Shown: positions 1 to 59,500 of the stretch, in pieces
Numbering within the stretch: position 1 is the stretch's first letter
Layout: each line of letters starts with the position of its first letter
NCBI GenBank assembly: GCA_036172245.1
Contig: JAYWIR010000029.1
Span: 1,736,001 to 1,800,000, forward strand
Reading direction: 5' to 3'
DNA from: Raillietiella orientalis
Lineage: Eukaryota
DNA length: 64,000 bases
Translations under genes and position numbers: made by a program
The notes under the pieces: model-generated
The model's database searches: none
What the model was told of the DNA's origin: nothing
The model's input: only the letters and a program-made list of their open reading frames with translations

Positions 1-79
1 CGTGCAGCAAACTTTGAGTAACCAGGTGCAAGGTGCAGGCGATTCAGGGATGCAACAAGATGCACGGTTCTGAATGGTG
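1..79 (+). repeat. Exact copy of 14958-15036 (end of a duplicated block that probably extends upstream of the window)
   Basis: cgtgcagcaaactttgag...cggttctgaatggtg is identical at both sites. Looser similarity continues about 100 nt further, to ccttggaaa. Confidence 0.95.
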
Positions 80-1506: not shown

Positions 1507-3393
1507 ATGCCTTTAAACGTAGAAGGTTCGCCCAATTCTGCGCAGAATTTGAATTTTCCTAGCCCGATTATCACGAGACGAACGAGAACTCTATCTACGT
1601 AAGTATTTACGTGTGCCTGGCCAAAACATCAGATATGCAATACAGCCCATAAAGCATGTTGAAGGCATTTTCAAAACTTTAAACATAAGTACATGACTCT
1701 GTAGAATGATTGAACCCTCCGTAACCTAAAGCTGTGAAATGCCATTCTCTTGCTGATGATTTTGAAAAGCATAAGGCATTGTTGTAAACATTATTTCTGT
1801 ACAAGTTCATTATGAAAGTGTAACACAATAGGTACTCAATTAAAAGGCATAGCAAGGGTAGGTGTTAATAGTTCATCAGCAATCGACCACTTTCGAAACC
1901 GTTAGTATGTTATTTTTCCAGCATTTGTTGTTTTCTGTTTATAAAGGTAAAGTTCTCTTTCTAATTAGTGCTTTGCAGACTACTTGTTTAGGGTAATGTT
2001 TATCTGGGGTTGAATATTCATTTTGCACATACTTGCTGCATTTGTCCCTTTGTTAACCAAAACATCGTTCCTTATGTTAACAAAGTTCAATGGAAATAAA
2101 AATAAGATATCTATTTTGCTTTGATTAATATTTGAATGAAATTTATTCTAAAGTACATTTATTCAGACTTATTGATCTTCTTTCATAAAATATGCATATC
2201 ATGCATTTGCTCCTGCTCATCCAAGTGTATATATGCATATCTGTTATTAAACATAAGATTAATTATGATTCAATGATCAATACAGTACAAATTTGAAGAT
2301 TTTATGTTTCATGTAGTGTTGCACATTTGGTATTTAATCTATGTAAAATCAGAAAAAACGTAAGTGATGTTCGTGTACATGCAGTGAATGTACATATGTG
2401 GAACTTTAATGAGTATAAGCAAGTGTTAAAATAGATGAATGTCAGTTTAAAGGTAGAACTTGCTTCAGTGTTGCATTTCTGTATGTATTGCGCCCTTATT
2501 TAAGGGAACCATAGTTCTTTGTTTTCTCATATTGCATATTACCATAGCTCATTTAAAGTTTCGGTGTGCCTTGTAGAGTTCAGTTTTGTAAAATGGAATC
2601 ATTTGAAAGTTATGCAATTTGGAGCATTCCCAATTTAGTACAAAGTAGGTAAAAAAAATTCCATATAAATCTGAAGATTCAGTGAGAGATTTGTAAGATT
2701 CAGAGATTTCACTAGCATATCTCTGCTTCATAAAATCAGTTTTGTCATTAAGGAAAATCTTGATTTAGCATGTGTAAAATGGTGAATCAGTAATTATTGG
2801 TGAAAAGGAGTTATATATTGAATTTTGAAATTTACATTAATAAGAATTATTCTTGAAACTATGGCCAGACGTGATTACTTTTTGTTGATGAGGGTGTACA
2901 GCACTGGTGGTGTACTGTATTATGTTTAGATGTTTATGCCATATATTTGAAAATATAATGGTTTGTCTGATAAAGCTTAAATTACTTTGCACTAGACTGC
3001 ACACCATTAAAAAGTTAAAGATAACTAAATATGAATATGATTAAATTCGTGCTATCTTGTTTTAGCAATATGAAAGCTCTAAACAATCCTGTAGAGCAAG
3101 GAACAGTCAAGTTTTTTTGCCGTAACAAAGGCCATGGTTTTATTACTCCTAATTCAGGTGGTGAAGAAATTTTTGTGCACATTTCTGAGTAAGTATACCA
3201 TTTAAGAATGAGAAATTCATTGAGGTATAGCATTGAAGGAGAATTTGTTCCATGTGAAGGTGACATAGTTACATTTCGGCGTTGCCCAATGCCCCCCAAG
3301 TGTGAAAAAGATCAAGCAGTTCATGTTGAAATTGTAAACTTCACCCCCACCATTCACATTCCTTGGAACTCACATGAAGGATCTGGTCATTGA
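1507..3393 (+). CDS. CARHSP1: Cold-shock-domain protein, CARHSP1/CSDC2 family; exons 1507-1598, 3066-3188, 3231-3393
   Basis: Spliced translation MPLNVEGSPNSAQNLNFPSPIITRRTRTLST NMKALNNPVEQGTVKFFCRNKGHGFITPNSGGEEIFVHISD IEGEFVPCEGDIVTFRRCPMPPKCEKDQAVHVEI. It has the RRTRTxS motif and the RNP1/RNP2 CSD motifs. GT-AG introns of 1467 and 42 nt keep the frame. Confidence 0.93.
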
Positions 3394-3422
3394 AAGAAAT
3401 ACATGGGAAAATGGGTACAACA

Positions 3423-3835
3423 CTAGTTGCACTTCCACACACAGATGGCAAGATTGCCACCAAAGAACATGTACAGAAGATGATGAACCTGATGAGATAC
3501 TTCAAAACCAAAGCTTTCACCCACTACCACATGCCATGGTCCGCCAAATCGAATATCCATGCTTTCTTTGATTAATTTGGCTGCCATCTGATTTCCAAAA
3601 TTAAATGTGACAGCATGTGATAGCATGTACTTCACCTCATTATTAGTGGGGTGTTTCTCGCATGCTGTAACGCATAGTTCACTGCATTCTAATTGTGTGT
3701 CTTCTGCCATATCTGTGTGCTATCCAAGAAGTTCTTTGTTTCATAGATCCCCTCCCAACTTACCCGGATTAATGGATATGTGTGTACAACCTTTTTGCTG
3801 CTATCTTCTTTTTTTTCTAGACTTACGTCAACCAT
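3423..3835 (-). CDS. DNAL4: Dynein axonemal light chain 4; exons 3835-3764, 3719-3636, 3587-3423 (106 aa)
   Basis: MVDVSLEKKEDSSKKVVHTYPLIR HTDMAEDTQLECSELCVTACEKHPTNNE MAAKLIKESMDIRFGGPWHVVVGESFGFEVSHQVHHLLYMFFGGNLAICVWKCN matches DNAL4 along its length. GT-AG introns of 44 and 48 nt. Confidence 0.94.
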
Positions 3836-3911
3836 GATCAACCTACAACACTAATTGTTAATGCCTAAAAAAGTGCACTGCACCCCTTTAATCCCTTGAA
3901 ACAAACAGGAT

Positions 3912-5037
3912 TTATTTGCTATGGCAAATAGTTGTCTTAGGCTTTCCATGATTCAGGGTGGCTAGCAGCTGACATGCTTTGCAACAAGGTTGACTACTTA
4001 AACAGCCACACTGGTTGCACTGTTGTTGTATAGGATGACGGATACTTTCAGATGCCCTGAGCATGCTCCCTAGATCAGAGCTGTCCATTCTGGATAGAGG
4101 ATGTCTATTCCTACCTGACTGGATGATGTCCAGCACACCTGAAGGCCGTAACTGAGTCAACTGAGTAATCAGATTACGTGCATGACCTCGGAATGCATTG
4201 GTGCTGTATGTACATTCAGTAGAAAAATAATTTAGGCGCTGAAAGTAAGCATATAGCACAATTTCTCGTTCTAAAGCTTGGTGAAGTGGTTTAGCACGTG
4301 GAATGCCTTCAGCACCAGTCTGAAAAAACTTCAAATTACAAAAGATCTTTCATGCCACACTTACAGTGAGCATACCAGTACAGCGCTGCAAACGTTGCAC
4401 ATCACCACGCAACACATTCATGATAACTGTTTCAGCCACATCATCAGCATTGTGACCTGTCACAATACAATCCACTCCCAAGTATGCTGCTCCCTTATCA
4501 AGAGCTTGACGGCGAAAAACTCCACAAAAGGAGCAATTATGCCGCTGACCTACTTGATCCACAATCTCATCCATAGTCCATCCATATAACTGCTTATATG
4601 ATAATATGTGCAATGGCACTCCATATGTTTGGGAGTTCTGTTGCACAGTGATTAGAGAATCATCCCGATATCCTAGGATGTAAATAAAAATTTAGCAAAC
4701 TGTCTTGAACATACCAGATATGCCTTCATCTATGGACAATAAAACCAGCTTTAACTGATAATTGTAACGTTCATTTAGCAGATGCAGGACATGAAGCAAC
4801 ACAGTTGAATCTTTACCACCGGATGCACCTATAGCAATATATTTGTATTTTTGAAATAATTCATTAGATACAATGGTATCATGAACTTCCTTTTCAAATA
4901 CTTCCAGGAAACACGTTTTACATAAGATGTGGCCAGTTTTTGGTCTCTATGAGCACAGTGCAGTGTATTGCATGGATGTTTTAAATGCATACCTTCATGT
5001 TTGCTCGTGCTTCACACTTGCTACACTTTGCAGGCAT
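3912..5037 (-). CDS. CTU1: Cytoplasmic tRNA 2-thiolation protein 1; exons 5037-4993, 4946-4715, 4672-4365, 4319-3912 (330 aa)
   Basis: N-terminal CxxC...RPKTG...CxxC, PP-loop [53 protein letters not shown]...FRGHAR and C-terminal CxxCG...CKAC. GT-AG introns of 46, 42 and 45 nt. Confidence 0.96.
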
Positions 5038-6599
5038 TGTTAGAGCACCCTCAAAATTGTTACATTACACATATCACACAGTATATCTGTGGAAATGTAC
5101 ACAATGCATGATGCATAATAACGTGAATCAACACCTGCACAAGTAAAATTGCTTATTTATTCAAAGTTTTCGGGCACAATTTTCACTCGATGTAACCGGA
5201 AATAATTCGTACATTCATACATAACGACACAATGTTCATTTGTACAGGTGCCACCTTTTCAATTATTGATTGAAGGAGTTTGCCGTTTTGCTAAAGTACC
5301 TTTTGAAAATCAGTGAATGTAAGTCATTTGCTAAGGAAACAGAAAAATACTGTACATTTTTGGTGAAATCGCCATTGATTAAACAATGGATCTCTTAGTA
5401 AACTCGAAAGATTGTTACAACAAATACGGCACACAAATAGGAAATGCTCAAAGGTCTTAAGCATACATTAAGCAATTCTTTCAAATGAACAATTCAATGA
5501 ATGCCATTATCGTCCTTACACTTCTATCCCGAGAATATTATCGAAAGAAGTGTACTCATTCATTCGAAAGTTTTCTGCTAAATGCAGTTTTCCGACTACG
5601 CTCGTTCTTTAACTTCGTTGATATTCGGCTTTCTCATTACTCTGAGAACTCTTCTTAGCTATACAATCCATAATTCACCAGTATTCAACAACCAAGCAAT
5701 TTTAACAACTACATGTGTTCAACTCTTCGATGGTGGTCTCATGCATTACACATGCGTTACCATCTCAATTAACCTATTCTCAAGGAAAAACATGATTGTT
5801 TTACCAAGATTGCTTTATGGTTCATAGTTTTATAAAAATAACAGTTTTATAATTCATGACATTATCAACTTCCCAGTTTCTGTGTATCCATCTACTCATA
5901 CAATTCGTGCGTAGAATGATTTTGGTTTTTACAATGGAAAGCAGGGTGCGCAGTCATATCTTATGCTTTAATATTCCAATTAGCAGCTTCATGTGATTTA
6001 GGTCAATGCAGCTGTGTTCAAAGTCTCAAGTATCTACTTGTGCACTGAATTAGTAGGCGATTTTCGTAATAAAAGTAACATTGTCCTCAGGGAAACTACA
6101 GGAGTTTAATGTGTATATATTCAACGATTCATTGACGACTGCGCATAGCAATATGATCAAGCAACAAGTAGTTTCACTAAGAACGTGAGTTTAAACGTCT
6201 TGCACTAAGGCATTTTACGAAATCGATACACATTTGGATTATTTGGTGACAATGATTGCTATTTATAATTGCACCTACTATTCTGGTTGGTTGGAGAAAT
6301 ATGAATTTTTTTTTCACACTTTTACTTTGGATATTCATGTAATTTTTGAAAAACATCCATTGTGAGACTTTAATAAAGGATACACGGTCAGAACGCTTTC
6401 ATGATGTAAAAAAAATATGAAGTAAGCACAAAAACTACCTTAACTAAATCTGTAAATCTGTTAGAGGTCAATTAACTATTTGAGAATTATCTTGATTGCT
6501 TTAATCGCAGAAAGTGAAATTAAAATCACATAAAATGGCATCCAATAGAATGCATCATATTAGTCTTAAGCGACAATGTTAACACAGAATGTGTATGTT

Positions 6600-9500
6600 G
6601 AATTGAAAGACCTTGAACGAATGTGTCAGATGAATTGAATGCTGCTGTGGAAACGGTTGGAGGGAAAGAGAGGAAAACCGTTTAAAGGAGAGATCTGAAA
6701 ACCAATAACAAAAAAACAGAAAAGAAACAGAAAAAAAAGGTATTATAAGGACATGGATCAAGAATAGAAGGCATCCATTATTAATTAATGATATAACCCC
6801 AGAGTGATGCTTGATAATGGAGGGAAATGATGAGAAATCAGTATGACTCCTAAACTGATAAACCCAGGGCAAAGCAGATAATAATTATATTCATCGCTTG
6901 CATTTATAGTTTTATTTATGTCTGAAATCTGTAGCCTATTAGAATCTTCAAGAGTATTTTTCTTGAGTTTTCTTGAATTGAATTTTCATTTAGGAACTTT
7001 AATCAGACAATGGCACCTCTTTCTTTTGAAGTCATCCTTTTCGAATTTAAGTTTAACTTTTTATTCTATTCCGGATAGATGTCAAAATATCTGATTTTTA
7101 GAATATTGAGTCTTAGCCAAAATCCATCCACAACTTTGCTTCTGTGACTCACAACTGTAGTCACACAAACTTTGACATCAGAAACTAAACATACTCTTCA
7201 ACACATTGCAAGATATGGCCCGAAGAATGACTTAAAGTGGAATCATCAGAGAGAGCTGAATTTCAATAGTCAAGCATTCAAGATTTTTTTTTTCTTTTTG
7301 AAAAAAAAGTCAATTCCTTGATTATTATTTGATACAAATAGACAACTTCAAGGTATAACGATTAGTGCCTTTGAAAGATCTTGTATTACTTTAGTATATG
7401 CTTTCAACATCAGGGTTGCTTATGTTTTTCACAAAAATAGAACCTTATAGAAATGTTACTATAATTCTACACAGCATTCTGCTACAGAGAACGAGAAAAC
7501 ACATTACTTTTAATACTTTATAAGTACATACCTGTCTTTGAGTTTGTCAGAATAATGCTGGTTTACATTTGGACAATGTATTAAATAAAACTGAGTTTGC
7601 AACTCAATGTACGGATACTTTTGACGTTTCTAATATATGCTGAAGTAATCAATGAGGTTTCGTTACTGGGAGCGTGAATAAACTACTTTTAAAAATTCCA
7701 TTCATTATGGAAATATCAATTTCCTTGTTTCTGCAAGAAATTCAGTTTCTTGTTTCTTACACATTGCAAATATTTGCATATGGTATGCACACACTCATAA
7801 GCATGTTATTTATGCTCTGTGTCTTTGGTAGTTTTGTAGTTTTTAGTGCATTCGGTGTGACTTACAATTAATTTGAATATGATAACAGATGTAGCAATTG
7901 AGATCTAGGAACACATAGGTGAAGCCGATACACATGCTCAATGTGAAGATGACGTAAGGAATGGAGTGGAGAAATGAATCCACAGAAAAATCAGCAATTC
8001 CAACTCCAATCGAAAAGATGAAAAAAACGATGACGGTAAAAACAACAACACAGAGACAAGAAAGACACGCTCCTGGAGAATAGAAAATTTCCACAATGTG
8101 TGAAAGTCATGAGCTTGCATTTTTAGTCAATTTTCATAACACTGAAGAGTACTTCACTAAGTGGAATGCAATGTCAGTGCATCTTGCTGCAAACTGCTAA
8201 TGATCACAGTGAATGACTTGGAGGCAGTGTCTGTCAGAAAAGAGCTGCTAAATCAGCAATCCACGAAGCCGATGTGTAGGTGTTCCGATTTCTATGATTA
8301 CCAAATTTGCTGTCAAATACCATCACTGAGCGTTAGCTCAGCATCTTTGCAACACCTACACCGATGAAGCATGGGAGCATCAGATGCAAATGACTTTCAC
8401 ACTATGTACCTGTATGCAGCTATTCTCCGAATTATCCTCAGTGCAGTGAACTGACACAAATATAAGGGTTTTCATCTGTAGAGATTGTAAGCGCTCACAG
8501 AGATAGTAAAGGATCCGACCTGCAACGGTATCTTTGCAATTGGAATGTGCGATGACTAGGTGTCAAGGCAATTCAGTCTTGGAAATGGGATAAACTGTGG
8601 TTCGTAGCGGGATACGGCGAAGCTCTTTAAACTCGAGGAATTCGTTATTCACTCCGGAGTTCAATAGTCGGCAGCAATCGACTGTTTCATCTCCTGCACA
8701 CATACAAAAATACGTTTATGTCTTTTTTTCCCACTGCAAGCTCGAGTGCTCTAGGGATATGCTATATGAAGGCGAACACTGAGCACAGCAAGAACAGGTG
8801 TGTCCACACTTCTGATTCTACAAGCATCAATCCCTTAGAGCGAAAAAGTTGGTTGGGCCCCATGTTTTTCTTTCATCCCTTGTTGTTCATCCATTACGAC
8901 AAGAGAAAGCTCCCAGCACATGGACAAGGAGTGTGCTACCACCCAGCTGAAAGTAAAGTTTCACAGTGGTAAGGTTACTGGGTTAGCACAGTGGAAGAGA
9001 ATGACGCGCCTGGTTCTTGTGTGGTAAAACGGATCTTGAAAATCGAGCCGAGAGCATTCCACAAGAAAGTTGACCCTGCTCCTGCGGTCTTTTTCGGAAA
9101 TTCTGTGGGCAGTGCAGCAGCATTATCGAGGTGAGTTGATGACCACACAGAAACAGTAGAACCTGCAGGCTGAGTCTCAAAGGGACAGAACGTCTCAATA
9201 TTTGTTTGGGGAGAGAACCGATGTACTTCCCAAAATAGTCAAAGTTGGTGCTAAATGAGAGCAACTTCGATGATTCTCAAAATAAATAATGAAAATGATT
9301 TCTTTGATACTGTTAACATAATGTAATCGAATTCTATAGAAGGATGCTTTACAAGTCGTTCCCAAAGCTGAAAACAGGATAAGCACTGTTAAAATCAAGG
9401 CTTTAATAGCTGGAGGTGAAATCATTAGGATCAGTAAGAGCAATCGATGCAACATCGGGACACCAAGAATGGGGTGGACATTTGGAGTACTCATTTGCAT

Positions 9501-12700: not shown

Positions 12701-13249
12701 CTTATTTACATGAGACTGCAGGGTTTTCGTCAGGAAAAGCACACAACGGCGGTCTATGAACCTTGTTTTTAGCAAACGTGCCGTTTCCTCTGAAATTCTG
12801 TTACCTCACTCAAGAGATCCAGAACTTTCACGTCGATATGTACGAATCTCGTGCAAACCTAGGCGAATTCCAGGCCGTACAATAAACCAAGGAAACGTCA
12901 CTTAGCATCCTACACATCATGAAACGGCAGGTTCGGCGGCGATGTTTCCCTGCAAGCGGATGGAAGGGCAAAGCGGCAGAGGGCGGTGCCGCCTGCCCGC
13001 TGTGCCGTGCGGCCGCTTTCCCAACGGGTGCAACGTGGGGAGGCTTCCTTCCCTCGTAGAGCCCGGACCCAAAGGGCAGCGAGCGATGGTTTCGCTGCTG
13101 GTTTCCTGCGGCGGCGTCCATCTTTCCACCGCTCTTCCATCTCGCCTCGTGAGCCAGGTCGCGTTCGGATGCTGAGGTGCTGCGTGCCTCAGTGACTCCA
13201 TCCCAACGTCGTTTGTCGTTCGCACCCCTTTTAATAAACTCCCGCCCAC

Positions 13250-14150
13250 GATCGTGATTATCAGCAGTATCGGCAGTGTTCTGATTACACGCCAGCGTAA
13301 TGGGAATGGTCACGGACTGTTTTCGCTGCGATTCTGCTCTACTCGTTGTCGACCGGAAGCCGGGCGTCGTCGTCCGGCTCACCGATCGTCCGCCGTTCCC
13401 TCTTTGCAAGAACGCGCTCGACCACGGTCGGTCGGCGGTCTACCCGCGCGGGGAAGAGGAAGTTTCGGGACTCGTGGCACGGGTGCCTGCTGCACTTTGG
13501 CGTGGGTGCTGTTGCAGACAAGGCGTGCGGAAGGAAAGCAAGAAACCTGACGTCTGACGTCCGTGTCCCTCCTTGCTCAGGTGCGAAGTCTGAGCTCAGC
13601 TGGCGCTTCTTCCGAGGTTCTTTCTTTGGCAGGAGGTATCTGTCGGACGTGCCACCTACGTTCGCGCGCGCAACATTCGAAAGCTGGCGCTTTGCGGTCT
13701 CTTCTCTGGTGCGTCCGGCTCGCCACAAAGCAAGACGAGCAGCGACGTGCCTTCCGACTTGTCCAGAAAGGACCGTTGTGTCCAGCGAACGCGAAGGCTT
13801 TCATCGAAGCGACTCGTGGCGTTCGATCCGTCTGCAGGCATCCTCGTCCTCCCTGTCCACTCTCACCTGGAAACGAGGGTGGCGCTTGGGATCTGCGTTA
13901 CGGACTGTTGGAGCTGCGAGCAGATGTGCAGCTGCGAGGCGCTGCGAGAGAGCGGTTTCGTCTGCTGGGTTGTCGCAGGCTCTCGGTTGCGTGTCTCCCC
14001 TTCTCTCCGCTGCGCGGAGTCTTTTGTGTTCCGGGTTTTCCTTGGACCGGATGTCTCGCTGCGACTATCGGATGCAGTTGGCAGCAGCACGCGTCGCTTT
14101 TCTTCTCGCCTCTTGCCGTGTTGTTTTGTTTTGCTTTCGCTTGCCATGCT
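13250..14150 (+). mobile_element. Degenerate RTE-like RT fragment within the GC-rich block
   Basis: FPLCKNALDHG (like F.V..GL.QG), EVLSLAGG..RTCH (like ELLFADD..AH) and RLGSAL (like YLGS) occur in the expected order. Confidence 0.35.
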
Positions 14151-14599
14151 TCTTTGCCCGCTCACCCCCTTTCCACGATTCCTCCCTGACGCGCCTAGCA
14201 ACTGACAGTCGCGGAGGAATTTCGCAGCCACTGATCCGAGGTTCCCGTGAGCGCAGAGAGGGAGGTGAAAGTTGCGCTGAGGGGGGGAGGTGAACGTTCG
14301 ATTGCAGCATCGTCCAAGACAAACTTCTGTGCCTCGGAATGCGATTGTCGCGCGGGGCCGAGATGCTGGGCGATGCCGATGGATGCGTTCGGCGCCTGAT
14401 TCCATGGACGCGAAAGTGTTGTGCTTTGGATGGGATGCATGGGTCGGTGTTTGCGTTGCGGACCTGCTGGCACGAAAACGACGGAGCGCATCTGGCACGG
14501 AGGCTGTGCGGCACGCAAGCAAGCGAGGGTGGATGGGCGCGTCTGCAACGGTGTTCTTCGAGGAGACCTGACCGAAACGGGAGCAACAGCTGACCTCGG

Positions 14600-17500
14600 A
14601 AGAAAGCAGAAGCTTCGGGCTGCGTGTGAAAATCGGTGGTAGCTCGCGAACGTGCGGGATGTTTTCTCGACGGAGCCGCGAAGTTGGATTTTGAAGGAAG
14701 ATGGCGATTGCAAGCCCGACTGGGGGATGTAATTTCGAATAAGGGGATGCGAACGGCTGGCCCCTTGATACATGGATGTTGAGTCGCGGGAAGGAACCTG
14801 GTGATCGCAGTTTCTCCCCGAGGGCGTCGGAGGACTCGGGAATGTGGGCGTTCGCGTTTTCTAGGTGTGCGGGAAGAAGGGGTGGCATCGATCCAAGTGC
14901 AGGCGGCGCTTGGGATGTTCTTTCGAAGTTTCTTTGAGACGATGGGATACGAACGGGCGTGCAGCAAACTTTGAGTAACCAGGTGCAAGGTGCAGGCGAT
15001 TCAGGGATGCAACAAGATGCACGGTTCTGAATGGTGAGCTTCGTCCTACACCGTGGGGAAAGAGAAATATTGTGACCCTTTACATTTTGGTCTTCGTGTA
15101 GGAATGTAGGTGCTTTTCCTTGGAAAATTCAAAGGAAGATCTCTGAGGTATATCAATGTCTACTGACTGATTTGTGTGACCAATTTTAATTGATAGCGGG
15201 CTTGTGATAAGTGTAGGCACGTTCCTGGTAGTCCTGAGAACCTTGGGTTACGGGAAAGAAGAAAGTTTCCAACCCACTTCCGGTCCGGTGGCGATGGAAT
15301 CGAAACATCTTGAGGCGGTTTCTAAATATGCAGGAATGGTATCTTCCGCTGAATGGGAATTAGGGAGTGAAAGAGTGGGTCCTCAAAGAATCGAAATATG
15401 CCGGTGGCCATCTGGTCTTGTTATCACCACTTCTAGGAACATCTCCATGCCGTAAGCCAGATTCACATTCTATCCACTCTCGGGAAACTTTTTCAGAGAT
15501 GCGATAGTGATGCCCTTGAATTCAAAACAGTCATCCCTGCGTTCTTTTCCAGTACTGCTGCTTCTTGTCACTTTTCATCAAGATTTCCACTGAATAGAAA
15601 GTGAGGAAGATTCCATGCCGCAGGTGCAGGAAAGATGCTTCAGTTGAAAGACAGGAACGAAAGACACTGTGATCTTGCACTGAAGATTGTTGCAGATCGG
15701 GTTGTAGCAGTGGAATCCATGCCTGGATTGTGCCGTACCTTCCTTACAGGGAAAGTAAATTTGTGTGAAGTACGCAAAGAGGCTGCTGTACTGTTTTTCC
15801 GGAAGTTCAGCAAAGCTGTGAGTCTCCGCCGTGGCTACACTACGACAAGAATGCCAACGAATCTTCAGAGATTCAGCACTCTCTGTCCCTTCTTGCTTGC
15901 AGTTTTTCTGGAGACGGGATCGCGAACGCGGATGGTCATTTGCAATTTCGGGTTCCCACCAGTAGTTCTAAATCCTCATACGGCTTCTAGGAGTAGGCCA
16001 GATTCTGGTTTCTCAATTGCCTTGGTAGCTCACTGCCTACGCGATGCATCCACTACATCTGTGATTTTTCAACGTTCCACGTGTTCTGTCGAGAGCCGAT
16101 TCTCGATGTGCGTTCTCTGCCATGTGTTCGGAAGGTTCTCGCAATCCGTGTACTGTTCTGACTCTTGCCTGATCTGAATTTTCGAGGAGCGTTTACGGGA
16201 CGTAGTCGTCTGCACTTCTCAAACCCGCACAGCCATCATAGGTGCAAAGGCTCTTTTTACTGCAGCAGGCCTCTCCCAATGAGGATTTGCAACGGTCATA
16301 ACTCTGTCTTCCACATGAACGTGTCGATTCTTCGAAACATTCGCCAACCTGGACAGCAGAAATTCAGCTGCCTGAGGGATCGGAAGAGCGAAGAAATTGA
16401 AGAATTCCGGGCACTCCAGGGTCTTCTTCTGCTATAGCAGGTTGCTCTCGTGTGTGGACGCTGAGAGGTCTGGCATGGTACTTTGTATGGAGGTTTTTTA
16501 CGGAACGCGGAGGAATTTCACTCACAAAATCCCAGAGCCCGAGTTTCCCATTCCTCCACTGTGCATATGAGGAGATTTTTGTTTTTTTATATTCGGAAAA
16601 ATGGAAGAGCTCTGCGTTTTGGGGCACTATTTCTCTGCTGCACCGTGGAGGACCAGGGTGTGCACTTCGTCGAGAGATACTTGCATATCGCAGCATATGG
16701 ACAGTAGGTTGTCAAGCATCTGGACGCATGCAAGCGAGCCGGACCTTTGAAGAGCCACAAGAACAAGGAGCTCCCCTTTGGTCGGCGTTCGAGGAGCCAT
16801 CTTGCCTCCATCATGCGCAAATTGGGGAGCAGGGAGACATTTACTAGTTCAGAAGCATTTGGACCGGGAAAAGGTCGTGTCTTGCGGTGGATAGCATCTG
16901 TACGCAGAGTCATTCCTTGGGACCGTCTGAGATCTTCCGACCACCGCTGCATACGTGCTGTCCTCCTGAACTTACTGCCCGTGAGAGAGACGCCAGCGTG
17001 CTGTGGTGCGAATCGCATATATGCGAGAAGCTCGGCATTTGCAGGGTCATTAGCGCTCTTCCTCCATTTCTATGTGTTTCACACTCATCACCAAGAAGCA
17101 GGACCATCAGGTCAACTGAATCAAAGAAGAGATGGGGGACTGGTGGCCTCCAAGCAGCAGCCAATACCTGAGGTGCGCCACATGACTTCTTCCAAACTTG
17201 GTGTTCACAACAAACATCCGATCACCGCAGTCGGCGTTGTCCGACCGTAAGAAATCTAAGCAGCGGGATGGAAGGAGAAAATGCCGGGAGCTCTTTCTCT
17301 GCTTTGCGCTGCTAGACAAGTGCCGGCTTCGGCGCGAACAGCAGTGGGATGGAGCCTGGGACACGGCCTGACGACAGTGTGTCCTCATGACTACGAGATC
17401 CCCCGTTCAGAGGCGGAAAGAAGTTGAGGCGCATGAGGTGAGTGCGCGCCAGCACGCCGTCTGGGTCACCAGCGTGAGAAGAAGACAGGAAAAGGAAGAA

Positions 17501-49200: not shown

Positions 49201-50347
49201 CATGAGGCCCTAGTCTCCCCCTCCCTCCCTTCCTCCTTGTTTCTCCCCTTTCATAAGCGAAGAAACAGAGGATGAGATCCCTTCACCGTGCCGGCATCGC
49301 GAATTTCTCGAGGGGTGAGGCGGGGTCGGGGAAGTGACATGTTCTCCTCCCGGAGTCTCCCTGTGCCTGCTTGTCCTGGCCCTCCGATTCTCGCCCTCTG
49401 GTGTCATGACAACCAAGGCTCGAGCTTCGGTTGGGGAGGCTGCGTCTGTGCCACCCCTTTTCCAAGTCCCTGTCTCACTCGCGCCGTCTCGTCGCGAGGG
49501 GAATCGCGGGAAGCCCTGCTGCTCGCCGCCGACCCCGCCGGGTTCCCAGTAGATAAGGATCTCCGGGAGGTTCCAGGACCTCTTTCGAACGGAACCGCAG
49601 AAGCATCCACCGCCTTTTCGAGGGTCGGTGAGACCGCGAGGAAGAGCTCACCGGACGATCCCCCGGGCCTCAGGGGTGGATGAGGAGAGAAGGCACAGCT
49701 CTCGCCCCCCCCGAGGTCACCTTTTGACCCCTTCCAGAATCTCAGAATCCCCGCCACCTTCCCGTGCCAGGGAAAAGGATAGTGGACGGGGAGGTGAACA
49801 GCGAGAGATCACCTCCTCTCCCCTCTGGTCTTCCGCCCCAGAGGCTTCCCCTAGAAGGACCGCTGCCATCCCCGGAAGACTGCCCGCGCGTCACGAGGCG
49901 AGGAGTGTCCCCTTCGTGCTCGGGAGCGGGCGGTGGGGTGACGGCGGCCGAGAGTGGTGGTCGGAGCGCCTCCAGGAAAGAGGGGCGGGGCAAGGGTTGC
50001 TCACCCTTGTCGAGTGCGTGCCTCAGAGGGGGGGCTTCTCGCCGTCGGGTGGAGGCGGGAGCGGCGGCGGTGGCGGCGCGCGTGACTTTTCCGGTTTCCC
50101 TGACAGCGAGCGCGCTCACGCATGCGTGAAAGACGACGGCTGCGTGCTCTCCCCCTCCCCCCCCCCTTCCTCCTCCTCCCCCTTCCCGAAGAGAATCGAC
50201 CGGCCGTCCGCAGGGAGGAATCGCGGCGGCGGCGGCAGCGGGGGAGGAGGAGGAACAAGAAAAGGGGAGGGGGAGCGGCCCTTCGTTGTTCCTCCCGTTC
50301 TCTCCCTTCCTGGGAGAAGGAAGGAGGGACTCGCCCGTTCCCCTTCC

Positions 50348-50416
50348 CCCTCCTCCTCCTCCTCCTCCTCCTCCTTGCCGCCGCCGTCTTCCCTGCTTGG
50401 CCGCCGCCGCCGCCGC
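50348..50416 (+). repeat. (CCT)n and (GCC)n microsatellites upstream of the futsch ATG
   Basis: Read directly. Confidence 0.85.
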
Positions 50417-50510
50417 TCAGGGTCAGCGCGCGCCGGGCAGGCGCGGCGGCGTGCCGAGAGCGGTGCCCGTCGGAGCTGCCGCCGCATTCGCGCAGGAGGT
50501 GCCGCCGCTC

Positions 50511-53500
50511 ATGGAGCCGCCGCGCGACGCCCCACTGCCGGCACCCGCCGACGGCGCTGCCGCCGCGTCAACGCTGACCGGCGCCTACGTCCTCATCGTT
50601 GCCAGCAAGCCCAGGGAGGAGAGTCACCGCGCCGCCGTTCTGCAGCAGATCAAGGAAGGTGAGGGGACCGGGGAACCCCACCTCCTGGAAGATTGAGGCG
50701 GGACGGGAGGGAGGAAAGCCATGCCACGTCCGGGAGAGGAGGGGCTGCCGGGAGGGCGCTTGGCTCGCTCGGTCCCTTCGCCTTTTCCCCCCCCTCCCTT
50801 CCCTTCCCCCTGCCCAACGTGTGGGAAGAGGCCGATCAGCGGTATCGGGCCGCGCTCAGACTCGAGCGGAGGGAGGAGAGACGGGGGGCGCGCGCCACGT
50901 CCGCCCTCGCCCCTCCGCCGGCATGGACGCGCGCGCGCGCGCGGCGGCGGCGGCGGCGGCGTTCGATCGCCCGTCCGCGCTTCGAGCGGGGAAGAAGCTG
51001 CCGCGGTAGGGCATCGATCCCGTTGCCATGCAACAGGAGAAGAAGGAGAGGAGGGAGAGACGGTGCGCATCTTGCTTTGCTTCTTCCCTCCCCCCCCCTT
51101 GCCCTCCCCTACCCTCCGCCCTTCCCCGCATCTGCCGTAGCTGGCGGGGGAGGGACTCGGCTGTCGCTCCTCCCACCCCCGCCCCTGCGGGAGGGAACGG
51201 CTCTCTTTTGGATCCCGGGAGAATCCGCGGGGGGGGGAGGCAGCTGCCGAGGCGGAGGAGTCCGGCCATCGATCGGTCGCAGTGCGGCGCCGCCGCCGGT
51301 TTAGAGCGCTGGAGGGCTCTCCCGGGCAGGCGGGAGGAAGGAGGGGAGGAGGGGGAGGAGAAGAAAAAGAGGGAGCAGCAGCTCCTCCCTTCGGGCTGCT
51401 TTCCCCCGGTGGGATGGGGAAGGGCGCGCGACAGGGCCGCAGCAACCGGGAAAACGCACCTTGTTCTCCTCCCTCCCCAGCCCCTTTCCACTCCTTCGGG
51501 GGCTTCCGATGTCGCCGGACAGGAAGGGGAAATGGAGGGAGAGTAGAGAGGAGGAGGAGGAGGAGGAGGAGGAGGAAGGACCTGTTCGTTCCCCTCCCTC
51601 GTTCCCAGCCTTCCTCCTCGGCCCTCCTCGTTCCGTTCGCCTAGAAAGTCCCCAGCAGCTACGCCTGCGTCGGGCCAGGCGCGCGCGATTGCTCCGCGCG
51701 ACGGCCGGCCTTCGATCTCGTGGGTGAGTCATCCCGGGTGGAGGCGGCAAGCCGGGAGAGAAGGAGGCAGCCGCGCGTGGCGGTCCCACCCACTCCCCTT
51801 CGATCCCCGCTGAGACGGGGAACGTCCCCCCACCCTCGGACCCCTAGCCAGGACTCCGTGCTGCTTCCAGGAACTCTCTGGTCTGGAAGGAGGCCCCTTT
51901 CCGCCCCAAGGATTCGAGGGCAGTGGGAGGAGAGCGTTTCCGGGACCAAGCGTTCCATTCCCCTCAGAGGGTGGGGAGGGGCCCGCGGCGGAAGAAGGGT
52001 GAAGGGGTGAAGGCTTCTGGGTGAAGGGGGCAGGCGCGCCGTTCCTGGGTTTCCCGGGAGGAGGAAGAGACCCGGCATGCCCCCTCCTTTCCCTCCCCTT
52101 TCGGGATGACAGGACTCAGGAACGCCGCCAGCTGGATATCCCGTAGTAGGTGGGAGGGAAGATGAGAGCGGGGCCCCCAGTCCGTCGCTACCCTTCCTGC
52201 TTCGGGTACACCGTCCGGAGGGGGCCGTCTGGCGAGGGACGGGGTCTTGCCCAGGAAGCTTCCTGAGGAAGGGCGCAGGGAGGTTTCGGGACACCCCCGT
52301 TCCCTTCTCCACGGAAAGCTCGACTCTTCCCACGGGTTGCGAGGGAGGAGGCGGGAGGTGGGGAGGAGGGGACGAGGCCATCGATCAGCGGACCTGGCAC
52401 TCTTGCGCGAGCTGCGCTCCGAGTCCGCCCTTGGCTTTTCGAGGCTCCGGGGTTGCCTAGCAACCTCGGCAGCGGCGTTGTCGAGTTGGCTGCGGAGCGG
52501 GACTTGGGCAAGGCATCTCCCGGTACGGGGTTCAGGGAGGGCCGGCGCACGCGCGCACGTGCCTAGAAGTGCAGCCAGGGGAAAGAGAAGGGGCTTCGTC
52601 ACATGGAACCTTCCCGGTAGGACGGAGAGGAAGGGGTTGGGATGGGAGAGCGACGTTACTCCCACCCCCTTTCCCCACCTGCCGACCGACAGAGTGACCG
52701 ATCTGTACTCGAGCAGGTCGGTCGGCCACACCAGAAGGGTCCTGGAACCTAGAGAGGGACATCTCGTGGGGACCGGAGGACCATGTCGTTCCATCTATCC
52801 TCCTGACCCCCGGAGGGTGAAACAAGAGGAAGCTCCACAGGGTAGGAAAGCCGAAAGTCTCGGGAAGGAGAGGAGAGAGGGGGAGAGGACGACGCGTTTC
52901 AAACCGAAGCGTCCCCGAGGGTACGGTGAGTCCAAGCGTGGCGGGCGGTCCCACCTTCCCACCGCGGATTTCCGGAAATAGCCGCCGTCTTACTCATAGG
53001 AGGCGCAAGAAGGGGCGGGGAGAGATGAGGGTCCTCGCTGAACCGGAAACGGCACTCGGGGCAACCGGACAGCCCGGGGACAGCGACCGACGCGGGAGGG
53101 GCCGCCACCGCCCTCCGACGCCAAGACGCTTCTGCTGCCACATCGCGGCTACATCCCAGTCTTCCGTTCCCATTCTCTCCAGATGGCCTCTCCTCTGCGC
53201 TCTTCCCTCGGTCCTCTTCAAGGTGCTACGGTCACATGGCAACGCAGGCTACAGCGCTACCTGGCCTTTCGGAGTCCTCGGCCAGGAAGCCCAGACCAGG
53301 AAGGGAGGAGAAGGGTCGGGGGAAGTTGCCCCCCGCAGACCTTCCGGAAGGTGCGAGGAGACACCTTGGGTTGCCTGAGGGCTCGACTGCTCAACCCTTG
53401 GGGGAATCCCGCCTGAGGCCTTCATCAGCGAAACGTCAGGAATGAACCATCCGCGATGGGACGGCGACTGCGCGACAGGGGCGGAACGCCAGGTCTCTCT

Positions 53501-56500
53501 GGCGACCCCTCCGACCCGCTTTTTCTACCTCCGAGGGGGAGAAGAGGGTGACCAGTTCCTCCCGCGGGGGGTTTCTCACCCTGCTGCTCCCGGGAGACCC
53601 TCTCGGTCAACTCCCCTTCTCCTCCTTGGACAGCTGGGCTACTTGCGGCATCGCATCTGGGTTGACCAAGCCCCGAGGGTGGGTCACCAGGGACCCTCCG
53701 TCCGCAGCGTTCCAGCAAAGGACAGACGGCCGCACAGCCGTCACCTCCCTCGAGGCGCTCGCCGGGGCCTCAACATAGGAGAAGCAGTGAGGGAGGACTG
53801 CAGGGCGTTACTCAGGAAACGGTTCCTTCCAGGTCTGATGTCCTGGGACGAGGCCAAGTTCTGCCCCATCGCTCTGGAGCTCGGCCGGATGTCCAAGGAG
53901 TGCCCCAAAGGGGAAGACGACAGGAACGGTGAGTCCGGAACGGGGTCTCCTCCTTGGCAGTTTTGGGAACAGCCACGGGGAGTGTCTACCCTCCCACCTC
54001 CATTCTTCACGCTCACTCTTTCTCTCATCTCACATTCAGTTGTCGTGCGCCCCCTCCTTCCCTACTGCTCGGAAGAGAAAGAAGGGAAAGGGGGGTCTCC
54101 ACCCCCGCTCTCCAGGAGGGAATCCGATCTACCCCCCTCCCAGAGCCGAGGGTCTCCGGAGCACGCTCGTCTCGCTCGTGCATGACCCTCTTTCCCCACC
54201 CTTCCCCTTCTTTCCTTCCGGGACATCCGTGGGTTGCTTTCCCCAGCCCTCCTTTCCCCCCGTCGTCCCCTCTTCGTGCAGCCAGTTCCGCTCCGTCGGG
54301 GTGCCTGATCGGACTGGAGCTGGCAGCACCGCCCCGTGGAAAAGACGGGAAGCAAACAGACAAAGGTCGCCTCAGGAGCCGGGGACCCGTCGCCCTCTCT
54401 CCCGCTCGCGAGCGCCGGCCGGGAGGAGGAGAACCGGGATTCTTGCCTGTGTCCGCTCCGGAAGACGCGCCGCCGCTGCCCTCTTCCGAAGGACCAAGCA
54501 AGGGCGGACACAGCAGAAGAGAGCCAAGGGAGGACCTCCTCCTCCTCCTCCTTCCGCTGCCCCGGTGCCCAACGCGGCGGCAGGGCGGGACGGGGCCACT
54601 GGAAGGGACGGTCGCCAAAAAAAAATAAAAAAGGTGGTGCCTTTCCTTTCGCCGGCTCCTCCCCTTCTCCACCGCTGCCTGAAGGGGGAGGAGACTATGC
54701 GTGGGGTGTGTATGACGGAACTCGGACCCTTGTCATCACGGAAGTCGCCGCTAAGCCGGAAGCTCTGCCGTTCGCTGCCTCGGACCAACACGGTCGCTCC
54801 CGGAAGGCGGCGGCGGAAGAGGCGGCGCGTCCTGGAAGAGACGGGAAGCAAACAGACAAAGGGCTCCGGGTCGTCGGGGACCCGTCTCCGTCTCCGCCAG
54901 ATCCGGAGAATTCCCGAGCCTGGAAGGCAGTGGGCGAGCTCAGAGGACGTCTTCTCTCAGCCCTCCTCGGGGAGCTGAGATCACAGTCGACGCAGGTCGC
55001 GGCCCTCCACCCTCTGCCCTCAGGAGTCCGGACCAGGAAGAGAGGAGAAGGGTCAGGGGAATTTCTGTCCCTTCGGCAAAGGACACCGGGCTTCGTGTGC
55101 CAAGCTAGGCCTCTCCTCTCCCCCTTTCTTCCCGCCATCTAGCGGGAACGGCTGCGAGCAAGTCGCCAGCCAACGGGATGTGGATCGGGATTTTCGGGTT
55201 GCGCCTCAACAGCACCTCTCGCGGCTCGACGGGGAACTCGAGGCGTGGAGACACGCAAGAAGACAGGAAGACGAAAAGTCCTCCTTCCTTATCTGCTTCC
55301 TCCATCTCCTCGCCCCCCTTTCCGGGATTTTTTGCATCCACGGTCCGAAAATCGGCGCATCTGTGCCCTCTGATCTCTCAGGGCATTCCAAGGCCGACAG
55401 CGAAACGTCTCCGCCGGCTGGGAAGGTCATCTTCCGCGAAGACGAGAGGGTCCTACTGCCCTCGAGCACGCTTACACATTGACACACCCTGGATCCTGAC
55501 TGCATCGCGTCCATGTCTCCTGGGATGCGGATCTTCTTCGTGAGGGTTGCCAGTGATCTCGGGTTTTCCCTGGACCAGCTTGCTACCGCGAGAGCAGCCA
55601 TCCCGGAGACTCGTTACTGCTTCACGGGTGGCTCCCGGGGAATGAACAAATGCCGCGGCACGAGGGATCGACCCTCTTTTTCCCTCCAGAACTCGAGACG
55701 TCCTTCCCTCTCCGGGAGGGCGCGCCACCGTGCCTCTTCGAAAGCGCGTGCGCGTGAGGAACGCGGCGCCATCTGTTCTCGTAGAGGCCCGCTCCATCCT
55801 CGCTCTTCCCTCGGAATCCTTTCTCCGGGTATGGACGGAGAAGGGGAAGGTAGCCGATCGCGGCCTCTACCATCTTTCGGTACTCCCTTCCTGCATCACA
55901 TCTTCCGCCTTCTACGCCTCCTGTTGCCGTGGTCGTGCGACGATCTCTTCCTCGCATGATTCTGGGTGCCGCTTCGCACCCTGCTGCCATCTCGCACCGC
56001 TTGGATCAGCCTCTCACCCCCGGCATCCGGCAGCCCGAGAATCGCCGTGCTGCTGCTTTTACTACGAGGTTCTCGTGCGCTTCCCGCAGCAGCGCAGATT
56101 CATCCTGGAGCCTCAAGACAACGCGGACGTTTCGCATAGCGCAAAGGGTCATCGTCGCGCAGGATCTTCCGGGATCTCTTGTCGACAGCAGCGACATTCC
56201 ACCGATCTAAATCAGACTTGGAAAGCTTCGCAGGCATCTCGGATCCTCCAGACTCAACCAGGGATAGCCGCCAGACGGTAGCGGAGCGGCGCTTCCCTCT
56301 TCGTCGTCAAGGATCAGCGAAGGTGGTACTGGAAGGAGAAAAACCAAGCTTAGCTAACCAGGAGAGCTTCCGCGTCCATCTATGCTTAGACGGGAACGAG
56401 AACGAATCCTCTAGAGGAGCGGCAGATAAACCGAGTTTCCGTGCAGAGCTCTGAGAACGGCAACTGCAAAGAGGCAGATTCAGCGCTCTTGACTGAGTCT

Positions 56501-59500
56501 CTTCGCGAGATCCGCTTCCTTGTGGGCAGTCGCCTCTGGTGCCTCGGGCTAGCGGCTGACTTTAGACATTCGCAAGCCACTCTGTTCCTTGGAGGAGCAT
56601 TTGGCTTTCCGGCCTTTTCCCATCGTAGCTCACGCTTTCGCTTTTCTCCGAATCGATTAGAACTAGAATCCCATCAGTGGAAACATCTCAGACCACACAC
56701 AAGCTCACGCTCACCCTCATGCATGCATGCATATGTAAGTAAAATAAGGTAACCTGTAACGTACTTCGATCTAACTGTAGTTCTGTGAGCTGCTAACAGA
56801 TGTCAGAGCCACCCGTTTGAATGCTGGTAGCACCAAAAGTTAGCGAGCGGTAATTGTAAGTCTCGAATAAATCACATCACAATTCAAGATGCCACTCTAC
56901 CTCTTGCAGTGGTGATCATTTTCTGGAGACATATGCATGGGAACACATTTAATTTTGTTTTGTTAACTTTGAAATCATCTTTGAAAGTTTTTCTGTGTTA
57001 TAATTGTTCTTCTTTGTATGCCAGGAGAAAAACTGATACAGTATGCTTCCGAAGACATTATTTTCGAAATCTTAATACATCCATGTGTAAACACTCTTCA
57101 GCAGTGTATTCGAAATTTGTTGTCGTCATGCACCAGATATAAGCATATAATCCATGCGGGCTACACATTCTTAGGAAGTGGATCCTGGTGTCTACAGGTA
57201 ACCGTCCTAATTATGTAATTTGATTTCTGGATCTTGAACCCTACATTCACCTGTTGCTTGCTCTGTTTGTGAACGCCGATATCCGATGCCTTCAAGATAC
57301 GGTTGCGAAACGTCAGAACGCACTTCGTAGGCTGAGATGCGTCTGCGTGTGCATTTTGCATTTTTTATTTGGGGTACAGACGATGGATGCAAAACGAACC
57401 CATCGAAGTCAGGTGCTGTTGCTCCGTGGATTTCCATTCTTTGCTCATGGGAACGTGCACCATGTCAAGGGTCAGTCCCTACGAGAATTTCTGCTCCAGA
57501 AGTTGTAGACTGCGCCGCAGCCTCCGTTGCTGACTGCACCGTCCTTTGCTCCGTTTGTGCGCACGCCCACGCTGCTCTCCCCCCGGTTCGGCAGAGCAGT
57601 CTCTTGAGCTGTTTCGTGTCCATAATGACGCGAAACCCTGGGATGAGCGCTTACACATGGACACCCTCTGTTTTCAGCAAACCCCCTCGCGCGGGGGTCC
57701 GCTGGCTGCAAGTCGCCGGGTATCCGTGCTTTGGGATGGAGCTCAGCCGTTTGTCGGCACACGTCAGACCATCATGGGTTCACCGTTCGCTTGCGAATCG
57801 ACTGCGGTCCATTCTCTCAGCCTTATGTCTTCGTGTTCCGTCGATGGGCGCGTTTCACGGTCGAGGTGTTTGCCGTGGTCCACCAGACTTCTCCGAGTCT
57901 TCACTTCCGGTTTCTCTAATCGGAACGAATGGATTCCGTGACCTAGCGGCGGCGAATAATGGCTTTGCGTCGGAAGAACAATTAATGACGTTTCATTCGT
58001 TTGCGCAAACGACGTGGTGACTCGGATTTTTCAGAGCTGCCTGGTTGATCAGCACCGTTGAGTTCCTAGAAAAAAAAAGAACAAGCAAAAGTCCTCCTGG
58101 AGAAAAGAAAGGGATGCGGGGAAGCCTTCGATCCGAGTTCAAGAGTGCCTGGGGGCTCCGACAGCGGGGTGTGCACTTCCGATGGAGAAAACCCTCCCTT
58201 TGAGACAGCGCAGTCGTTCGACTGTGGGTCAACTAGCACCACCCGTCAGCGGGTTTTCGCACATCGCGGTGGTCTCATCTGGGTGACCCGTCCGTCATGC
58301 CTGGACCGCGTCCTTATCACAACGCGCGCGGAATGCGTTCTTACGCGAACTCAGTCAGAAGTCGATGGAAGGCGCCTAGAAGGGTGCTTCGCCCGCTGAC
58401 CGATGGGTTTCTTTGCTTCCCTGCCGACGCCTCGACAGAGACAGATGACCAACAAGCGCCAACAGCACGGGAAAAAAAAAAAAAAAAAACGGCACATCCA
58501 TCTTGATGGAGCACGTGCTGGACGTCTCTGTCCAGGCGGTGATCTGAGACACTGTCTGGTGGAAAGCACAGCGAACGGAACCGAGATCTCGCTCATCGTC
58601 CAAGAGCGCGCAGGTTTTCTCCGTTTCCCCGCTAGACTTTCGACCGCCTGAGTCCTCTTGACGGTCGCCGAAGATAGTGGGTGTCTCCTCATCCGGATGA
58701 AATGCTCTTCCTCCTCTAATACGCGCACCCTCGCGACCCGGTACGGTGCTTGCCGAGAAGTGGCGGGTAGGTGTCTTCTGTAAAGCGTTTCTTGCTCGGG
58801 CTCACTGGATCACATCCCTGCTAGCGCGGCGGATTCTGCTCAGCACCTGGAACAGCCACCCCTCTGCGACGGATGTACTCTCTGTTCTCCCTGTTCTCTC
58901 CCTAAAACATTCTCTCCCCGCACGCTAAATGATTCTTTCGCACGCACCAGGATGGGATGCAGTTCTTTTCTTCCTTAGCTGACACGAAACTCTTTCTAAT
59001 CAGCGAAAGGTTGAGGCTTCTGTTTGCAAAGAATTATCCACGGTTCCGTGTGCTCGTCGTACTAGGTCTCCGATCCTCCTCCTCCATCTTGATGTTCCGC
59101 CGTGTGCCCTTTCGAACTTCTTTGCTTGACGACCGACAAACCAAAGTGATCGGTCGATCGAAGCAAAGCCGCTGCTTTCTTGTGCTGCGCTTCGCCGCAT
59201 CGCCGGACTTTTCGTGATCGACCCTCCGCAATCTGTTTCAGGACGGGACGTTTTCTTTCGAAGACTTCCTGGACATCTGTTCCGAGTCTGACGTCTTCCG
59301 TGTCTTGAAAGCATATGAGGATTCGATCCAGATCACCGTGCACTGCCTTCAGGAGAATCCCTGGAACACCGACTGTCTGGCAATGAGGAAATGGGAGACC
59401 GCCTGCAAGCTGATCGTGAATTTTCCGCAGGTCATTTCCTGCAGAACCGAGTTCGACGCCTTCATCCAGTACATAGAAAAATTCCTTCCTGTGGAACCTC

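Follow-up and report, generated by a model that had tools for sequence, protein, structure and literature searches.

A tight gene pair on the minus strand

Two complete genes lie head to tail on the minus strand of the window, by which we mean the whole 64,000-nucleotide stretch of DNA analyzed here, which spans positions 1736001-1800000 of contig C29 in a 210-Mb assembly of 491 contigs. The upstream gene encodes CTU1 and the downstream gene a DNAL4/LC10 dynein light chain, and both are single copy in the assembly. The junction of 76 nt reported in the initial annotation was confirmed: both reading frames are complete, the CTU1 stop codon lies at 3914-3912, and the gap between it and the DNAL4 ATG occupies 3911-3836. 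The genes and the region upstream of them are as follows:

5151..6200, no strand: stretch upstream of CTU1 in which CpG is retained, probably the promoter region of the unit
5135..5299, minus strand: possible 5'UTR intron of CTU1 (donor at 5299, 1.8 bits; acceptor at 5135, 3.2 bits)
3912..5037, minus strand: CTU1 (cytoplasmic tRNA 2-thiolation protein 1), upstream gene, 315 aa, five exons (5037-4993, 4946-4714, 4671-4364, 4318-4114, 4068-3912)
3423..3835, minus strand: DNAL4/LC10-type dynein light chain, downstream gene, 106 aa, three exons (3835-3764, 3719-3636, 3587-3423)
1507..3393, plus strand: convergent cold-shock-domain gene, its stop 29 bases from the DNAL4 stop

The CTU1 frame has no internal stops and is 62.5% identical to bee CTU1 over 315 columns, and its product carries the Pfam PP-loop and zinc ribbon. 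The last exon of DNAL4 matches LC10 (E 1e-15) far better than cytoplasmic LC8 (about 1e-7). The convergent gene, which we take to be CARHSP1-like, ends so close to DNAL4 (window 3391-3425) that the 3' UTRs of the two must overlap each other's coding exons; DHFR and PDK (locus L004) are placed end to end in a similar way. Elsewhere in the window, a MAP1/futsch-like gene (50130-64000, plus strand) lies in GC-rich sequence (55-70%) and has an open exon of 1,196 codons or more, its best relatives being only 44-45% identical. The window also carries one copy of a GC-rich repeat of 2,066 bases (12892-14957), the other copy lying about 15 kb away (locus L002, 7935-10000) and being 99.95% identical; window positions 1-79 match 14958-15036, so the duplicate crosses the window edge.

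The genome very probably belongs to a tongue worm

Matches of CTU1 and MAP1, being too conserved or too distant, did not place the lineage. The mitochondrial cox1 gene is intact, and its top four matches include three tongue worms (Armillifer, 77% and 76%; Linguatula, 75%), the other matches reaching 71-74%. In a cox1 tree of 21 rows, the query was sister to Armillifer and Linguatula in a clade supported at 100/100, although the tree comprised only the query and 20 of at least 120 matches, had insects and a single mite as outgroups, and contained long branches that were flagged. Because of these thin outgroups and long branches, we added two further checks. Rare cox1 residues gave the same answer: the query has 24 in common with the three tongue worms together, and no more than 11 with any other single row of 117. 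Mitochondrial gene order on a 9.2-kb contig agrees in part with that of Armillifer, in that trnD comes immediately after cox2 and trnK adjoins trnR; it differs in that trnK was called on the other strand and in the order of tRNAs around nad3 (PMC12856591, in part). Decayed cox1 copies on large contigs (94% and 84% identical) tie the mitochondrial gene to the nuclear genome. Across the assembly we counted 54 cox1-like pieces, indicating many nuclear copies of mitochondrial DNA.

Taken from these mitochondrial sequences, the genome very probably belongs to Pentastomida (tongue worms), which are crustaceans of the class Ichthyostraca. A nematode origin is ruled out by cox1. Searches of the genome with Col_cuticle_N and Rfam SL1 gave no match, and their controls were also blank, so that these searches are uninformative alone.

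Splice and polyadenylation signals in the gap

The gap and its edges hold the following signals, in the order in which the minus strand is read:

3911..3916, minus strand: AATAAA, candidate poly(A) signal over the CTU1 stop
3887..3892, minus strand: ATTAAA, second candidate poly(A) signal
3878..3883, minus strand: GTGCAG, weak GT donor (-1.4 bits), the best donor in the gap, which would give a 41-nt intron
3865..3872, minus strand: TTTTTTAG, a U-run plus AG, either a moderate acceptor (2.2 bits) or a U-rich element
3857..3861, minus strand: TTAAC, resembling a branch point, some 15 nt upstream of the main acceptor
3852-3851, minus strand: weak third AG (-2.3 bits)
3843..3847, minus strand: TGTAG, main acceptor (6.0 bits), 7 nt before the DNAL4 ATG (3835), predicted trans-splice site

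The positions that the initial annotation had given for the two hexamers, TTTTTTAG and TGTAG all proved exact; TTAAC and the weak third AG were absent from its list. We scored donors and acceptors with weight matrices built from 48 introns of this genome, 36-59 nt long, which were curated by hand because automatic intron calls were noisy; candidates were searched at 34-80 nt only, so that long introns are missing from the set. On this scale, 47 of the 48 real acceptors score no higher than the main acceptor at 3843 (each being scored with itself left out), and 28 of 48 score no higher than the acceptor at 3865. When 75 of the 76 gap bases were shuffled 20,000 times, an acceptor as strong as TGTAG fell within 15 nt of the ATG in 0.095% of shuffles and any AATAAA or ATTAAA appeared in 3.3%, both figures being post hoc, since the site had been picked for these very features. 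Measured from its start to the end of the main acceptor, AATAAA is 74 nt away and ATTAAA 50 nt; to the end of the acceptor at 3865, ATTAAA has 28 nt. The sequence TTAAC at 3861-3857 may serve as a branch point. No ATG precedes that of DNAL4 within the gap.

The main acceptor could be used in cis if DNAL4 had its own promoter, in the last CTU1 exon or in the gap, with the acceptor closing a short 5'UTR intron that begins at the 3883 donor. This explanation, which we consider unlikely, corresponds to the alternative offered by the initial annotation. Its intron length stands, 41 nt being normal within the 36-59 nt range; its donor falls in the weakest tenth of real donors (4 of 48 are as low) and at background level, near the 75th percentile (-1.2 bits) of 6,093 background GTs. 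So weak a donor is rare yet real, and it also counts against reading the acceptor as unpaired in an operon. A main acceptor without a good local donor is the condition for trans-splicing (PMC1488885, in part).

Likely position of the promoter

CpG dinucleotides are retained upstream of CTU1 and lost across the two genes. Within 5151..6200, the ratio of observed to expected CpG was 0.8-1.5 in five of seven bins of 150 nt; from 5150 to 3201 it was 0.0-0.61 in all 13 bins, the depletion being unbroken. Gene-body methylation that spares promoters would leave such a pattern of CpG loss. For comparison, we sampled 18 LSM, 14 proteasome and 5 L7Ae genes, found by family searches blind to spacing, together with the local genes. 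The start codons of 47 genes were checked, of which 32 were kept and 15 dropped because the ATG was uncertain; for three more Sm/Lsm genes the ATG exon was not located. Over the 300 nt preceding the ATG, the 28 genes without a close upstream neighbor had a median CpG ratio of 0.80 (range 0.41-1.42), whereas DNAL4 had 0.07, the lowest of the 32, a value that partly reflects the body of the upstream gene, which the window of measurement covers. CNBP is an exception, with an upstream ratio of 0.79 although it is the downstream gene of a tight pair.

The CpG minimum before DNAL4, a proxy for the lack of a promoter, speaks against one of its own. A promoter restricted to one tissue, such as sperm, could nevertheless be very short and exempt from resisting germline CpG loss.

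The same CpG profile would fit a shared non-coding first exon upstream of CTU1, cis-spliced either to 5135 or, skipping CTU1 (about 1.45 kb), to 3843, in the manner of the cholinergic locus. The donor at 5299 and the acceptor at 5135 could take part in such splicing. The arrangement needs no leader gene to account for the strength of the acceptor or the lack of a promoter, and units of this type have been described (PMC2776167, in part). We regard it as distinctly unlikely, however, since splicing to DNAL4 would have to pass over five exons together with four short introns, as well as two poly(A) signals, and the same arrangement would have to recur at every tight pair.

Other tight gene pairs in the genome

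Five further tight same-strand pairs were found. Stop-to-acceptor distances (approximate) and particulars of the six junctions are as follows:

CTU1-DNAL4: 69 nt
PIG-Q-PHF5A: 79 nt; gap of 85 nt, 10 kb left of the window (L002, plus strand, 6873-6959), where two AG acceptors precede the ATG and a poly(A) hexamer is lacking
EB1-PSMB2: 143 nt; L053, plus strand, 1354-1497 (G000:C50); the frame of PSMB2 (proteasome beta-2) opens directly after the acceptor
SNU13-amino-acid transporter: 133 nt; L092, minus strand (G000:C9 near 1165000); genes 133 nt apart, the transporter ATG directly after the acceptor
REXO4-CNBP: 72 nt
SLC35C1-QARS1: 32 nt from stop to AG; AATAAA 22 nt before the acceptor

Pfam confirmed the families of PIG-Q, EB1, the proteasome subunit, SNU13, the transporter, REXO4 and QARS1; exact gene names, as well as PHF5A, CNBP and SLC35C1, were assigned by reading the translations. 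PIG-Q-PHF5A, EB1-PSMB2 and SNU13-transporter were met without selecting for an acceptor, and REXO4-CNBP and SLC35C1-QARS1 stand outside that set. Tight pairs are a minority of the sampled genes: among the 37 housekeeping genes sampled by family, with flanks of 1.5 kb, one was the downstream and one the upstream member of a tight pair, and the 10 local genes included two such pairs. Convergent genes are packed as tightly as same-strand pairs, as the DNAL4/CARHSP1-like stops illustrate.

Each of the six downstream genes is preceded by an AG, which lies 0-7 nt from the ATG or runs without interruption into the coding part. Within 15 nt of the start, an acceptor scoring 1.9 bits or more is present at four of the six, versus 3 of 31 others (Fisher p 0.007), and at all three downstream genes when only the unselected pairs are counted (p 0.003). 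These samples are small, the 31 others being the 28 genes without a close upstream neighbor, EB1 and two ubiquitin-conjugating retrogenes. Among the 28, a strong ATG-proximal acceptor was as frequent (1/28) as in background (26 of 476 windows). The exceptions run in both directions: the acceptors of CNBP (-0.3 bits) and QARS1 (-0.6 bits) are weak, and EB1 (3.4 bits), Lsm3 (3.3 bits) and the UBE2S retrogene (3.2 bits) show the same signal without being downstream genes.

The recurrence of unpaired acceptors at other pairs argues further against a separate DNAL4 promoter with a UTR intron, especially as one junction is too tight for any intron: the 32 nt between the SLC35C1 stop and the QARS1 acceptor are fewer than the shortest of the 48 curated introns (36 nt).

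The EB1-PSMB2 junction poses a problem of its own. The open frame of PSMB2 starts at what we take to be the residue following Met in its relatives, and the 143-nt gap contains no first exon of the form ATG-GT. The start codon of EB1 does not lie on a separate exon that could be shared, so a shared EB1 exon cannot supply the PSMB2 Met, which again tells against cis-splicing from a common first exon. The PSMB2 start may be explained by a one-base assembly error beside a minor-intron-like donor, by a weak donor together with an N-terminal extension, or by a start codon supplied by a leader.

Both genes might also be carried by one precursor that is never trans-spliced, either as a dicistronic mRNA read by reinitiation or through cleavage that leaves the downstream mRNA uncapped. 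Such loci exist in Drosophila, an arthropod that lacks trans-splicing (PMC2776167, in part), and the lack of an upstream ATG in the CTU1-DNAL4 gap would suit them. We nevertheless find this quite improbable, as it leaves unexplained both the enrichment of strong acceptors just before downstream ATGs and the need of PSMB2 for a splice to open its frame. That the acceptor serves a CTU1-DNAL4 fusion protein is hardly credible, for although a strong donor (4.6 bits) of CTU1 lies within 300 nt upstream, the join from 4114 to 3842 reaches a stop in the next codon, and none of the at least 120 CTU1 relatives listed contains a dynein light chain domain.

Several retrocopies and short introns were noted in the course of this survey. 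An old, intronless CNBP retrocopy (L085; G000:C22 near 3060300) is GC-shifted and has a partial internal duplicate on its 5' side, its 5' flank resembling a duplicate of its own coding part. Two intact, intronless ubiquitin-conjugating retrogenes (L110 and L111), which we take to be UBE2A-like and UBE2S-like, have acceptors shortly before each ATG; one of them stands some 290 nt downstream of a gene on the same strand, and the other is nested within a gene on the opposite strand. The alignment of the UBE2A retrogene to its parent begins only at the ATG. Genome searches for PLPBP and Ku80 gave no match. The first introns of Lsm8 and of both SmE copies (L043, L048, L049) open with what is presumably a minor-spliceosome-type donor, and those of SmF and Lsm2 (L035, L050) contain a short exon-like piece that ends in an in-frame stop, possibly a decay-triggering exon. 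For SmF, no good ATG-GT exon was found within 1.4 kb.

Search for a spliced-leader gene

The initial annotation had looked to SL RNA genes in the genome as a check. Six genome-wide searches and an examination of 5S, U1, U2 and mixed snRNA loci brought up no convincing leader gene, only one weak, single-copy candidate; a leader of other sequence could escape the motif, Sm-site and snRNA-flank searches alike. The amphipod leader core had one genome match, with no donor after it, and an SL2-like 22-mer had two matches at three mismatches, neither followed by a donor. Patterns combining a donor with an Sm site matched 64 times against 50 in the control, a second pattern 83 against 48; the only three-copy family among these matches proved to be a multi-kilobase duplication and was discarded. 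For the copepod leader motif there were 41 matches against 100 in the control, with no repeated family. The flanks of 6 of 43 5S, 8 of 42 U1 and 8 of 46 U2 matches contained no leader-like unit. A route through promoter motifs failed because LINEs disrupt the sequences upstream of snRNA genes. In one case a U2 gene is split by a retroelement, and after the same LINE end stands U3 in one contig but U4 in a second (L015 of G000:C389, L142 and L147).

The single candidate (contig C51, G000:C51 about 1006817-1006880; L142, plus strand, about 6817-6880) has a strong donor within a hairpin and an Sm-like site 20 nt on, inside an snRNA cluster of U3, U5 and U1 copies, and its fold z (-2.8) was the best among 47 examined of the 64 pattern matches. 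That value is near what the best of 47 gives by chance. The candidate is single copy, has an internal AUG that would be out of frame and is also the 3' flank of a decayed U3 copy; we consider it very improbable that it is a leader RNA gene.

A putative operon resolved by trans-splicing

Judged from the DNA, CTU1 and DNAL4 probably form an operon of two genes whose transcript is resolved by trans-splicing of a spliced leader. A single precursor through both genes would start from one promoter, located upstream of CTU1. The 3' end of the CTU1 mRNA would be made in the gap, via AATAAA or ATTAAA, and the short capped leader of a separate small RNA would be joined in trans at the unpaired 3843 acceptor, placing the DNAL4 5' end at 3842 and leaving the DNAL4 mRNA with a 7-nt UTR. 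Joint transcription, the place of cleavage, and the existence and addition of a leader are all predicted parts of this scheme. The dicistronic, leader-resolved transcript proposed by the initial annotation holds in one respect, as the DNA favors a single unit with an unpaired acceptor, and falls short in another, as a convincing leader gene was not found. The missing leader gene counts against the operon, as do the weak acceptors of CNBP and QARS1, the CpG kept upstream of CNBP, the presence of the same signal in first genes, the equally tight packing of convergent genes and the single tight downstream gene among the 37 sampled by family.

The operon would most resemble those of Ciona intestinalis and Oikopleura dioica and the SL1-type operons of Caenorhabditis elegans, which likewise join unrelated genes, mostly two per unit, across a very short gap, and likewise have an unpaired acceptor near the downstream ATG and a poly(A) site near the acceptor (PMC1488885, in part). 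In those systems leader and precursor are proven, whereas for CTU1-DNAL4 they are predicted. Spacing would fit a coincidence of poly(A) site and acceptor at 3865 (ATTAAA 28 nt before) and at QARS1 (AATAAA 22 nt before). The hexamers, 74 and 50 nt before the main acceptor end, likewise place the layout nearer to tunicate and SL1-type operons than to SL2-type ones. There are differences: most upstream genes of Ciona and Oikopleura lack AATAAA, and the C. elegans SL1-type has one hexamer, where the CTU1-DNAL4 junction has two; about half of Ciona genes are trans-spliced, whereas here an ATG-proximal acceptor was found in 3 of 31 genes outside the downstream positions of tight pairs (PMC1488885, in part). 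The initial annotation had ascribed intercistronic regions of about 100 nt with a poly(A) signal to both nematodes and tunicates. This is right for Caenorhabditis, but Ciona mostly has no intercistronic DNA and Oikopleura 23-30 nt (PMC1488885, in part).

SL2-type operons of C. elegans share the order of poly(A) signal, U-rich stretch and acceptor, but have about 100 nt from poly(A) site to acceptor (PMC7986045, in part); here the CTU1 stop is 69 nt from the acceptor, so the distance from cleavage to acceptor would be well under 100 nt. They differ also in having an SL2 gene, the like of which was not found here (two matches at three mismatches, without a donor). Chaetognath operons, likely of independent origin, are similar in holding housekeeping genes less than 250 bp apart, proteasome subunits included; 18% of chaetognath genes are in validated operons, and the share sampled here, from sequence, looks lower (1 of 37 genes; 2 pairs in 10 local genes) (PMC12460157, in part). 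Drosophila dicistronic loci and the cholinergic locus also place two genes under one promoter in an arthropod, but do so without trans-splicing and often with functionally related genes, which a tRNA thiolase and a dynein chain are not (PMC2776167, in part).

Implications for tongue worms

Leader trans-splicing is documented in copepods (PMC4664967, in part) and amphipods (PMC5111886, PMC5619915, in part), so the machinery has precedent in crustaceans, although the leader motifs of these groups were not found as genes here. According to a 2021 paper, operons were unreported in copepods and amphipods (PMC7986045, in part), and a 2025 paper on chaetognaths lists nematodes, tunicates and rotifers as the other operon lineages (PMC12460157, in part). 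A compact annelid genome has no operons (PMC7854359, in part), and compact genomes thus need not have them. The literature searched, which held few subscription papers and excluded supplements so that a passing report could be missed, gave no report of leader-resolved operons in arthropods; within the same scope, none was found linking Pentastomida to trans-splicing or a spliced leader, or CTU1 to an operon. The initial annotation had considered an operon notable if the host lineage was without known ones, and this applies to tongue worms, as identified by cox1, for which none is reported.

The evidence leaves about evenly balanced the broader proposition that tongue worms evolved operons resolved by a spliced leader, the first in any arthropod, with a leader that mainly frees downstream genes and seldom acts on single genes, and from which PSMB2, behind EB1, may take its start codon. 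If true, leader-resolved operons would be known from arthropods for the first time, and their new and probably independent origin would offer a test of whether operons follow leader splicing or drive it. That the acceptors seem confined to downstream genes bears directly on that order. At such junctions the gene models of this genome would have to be split, and a common leader would let the mRNA of the parasite be amplified selectively from host tissue.
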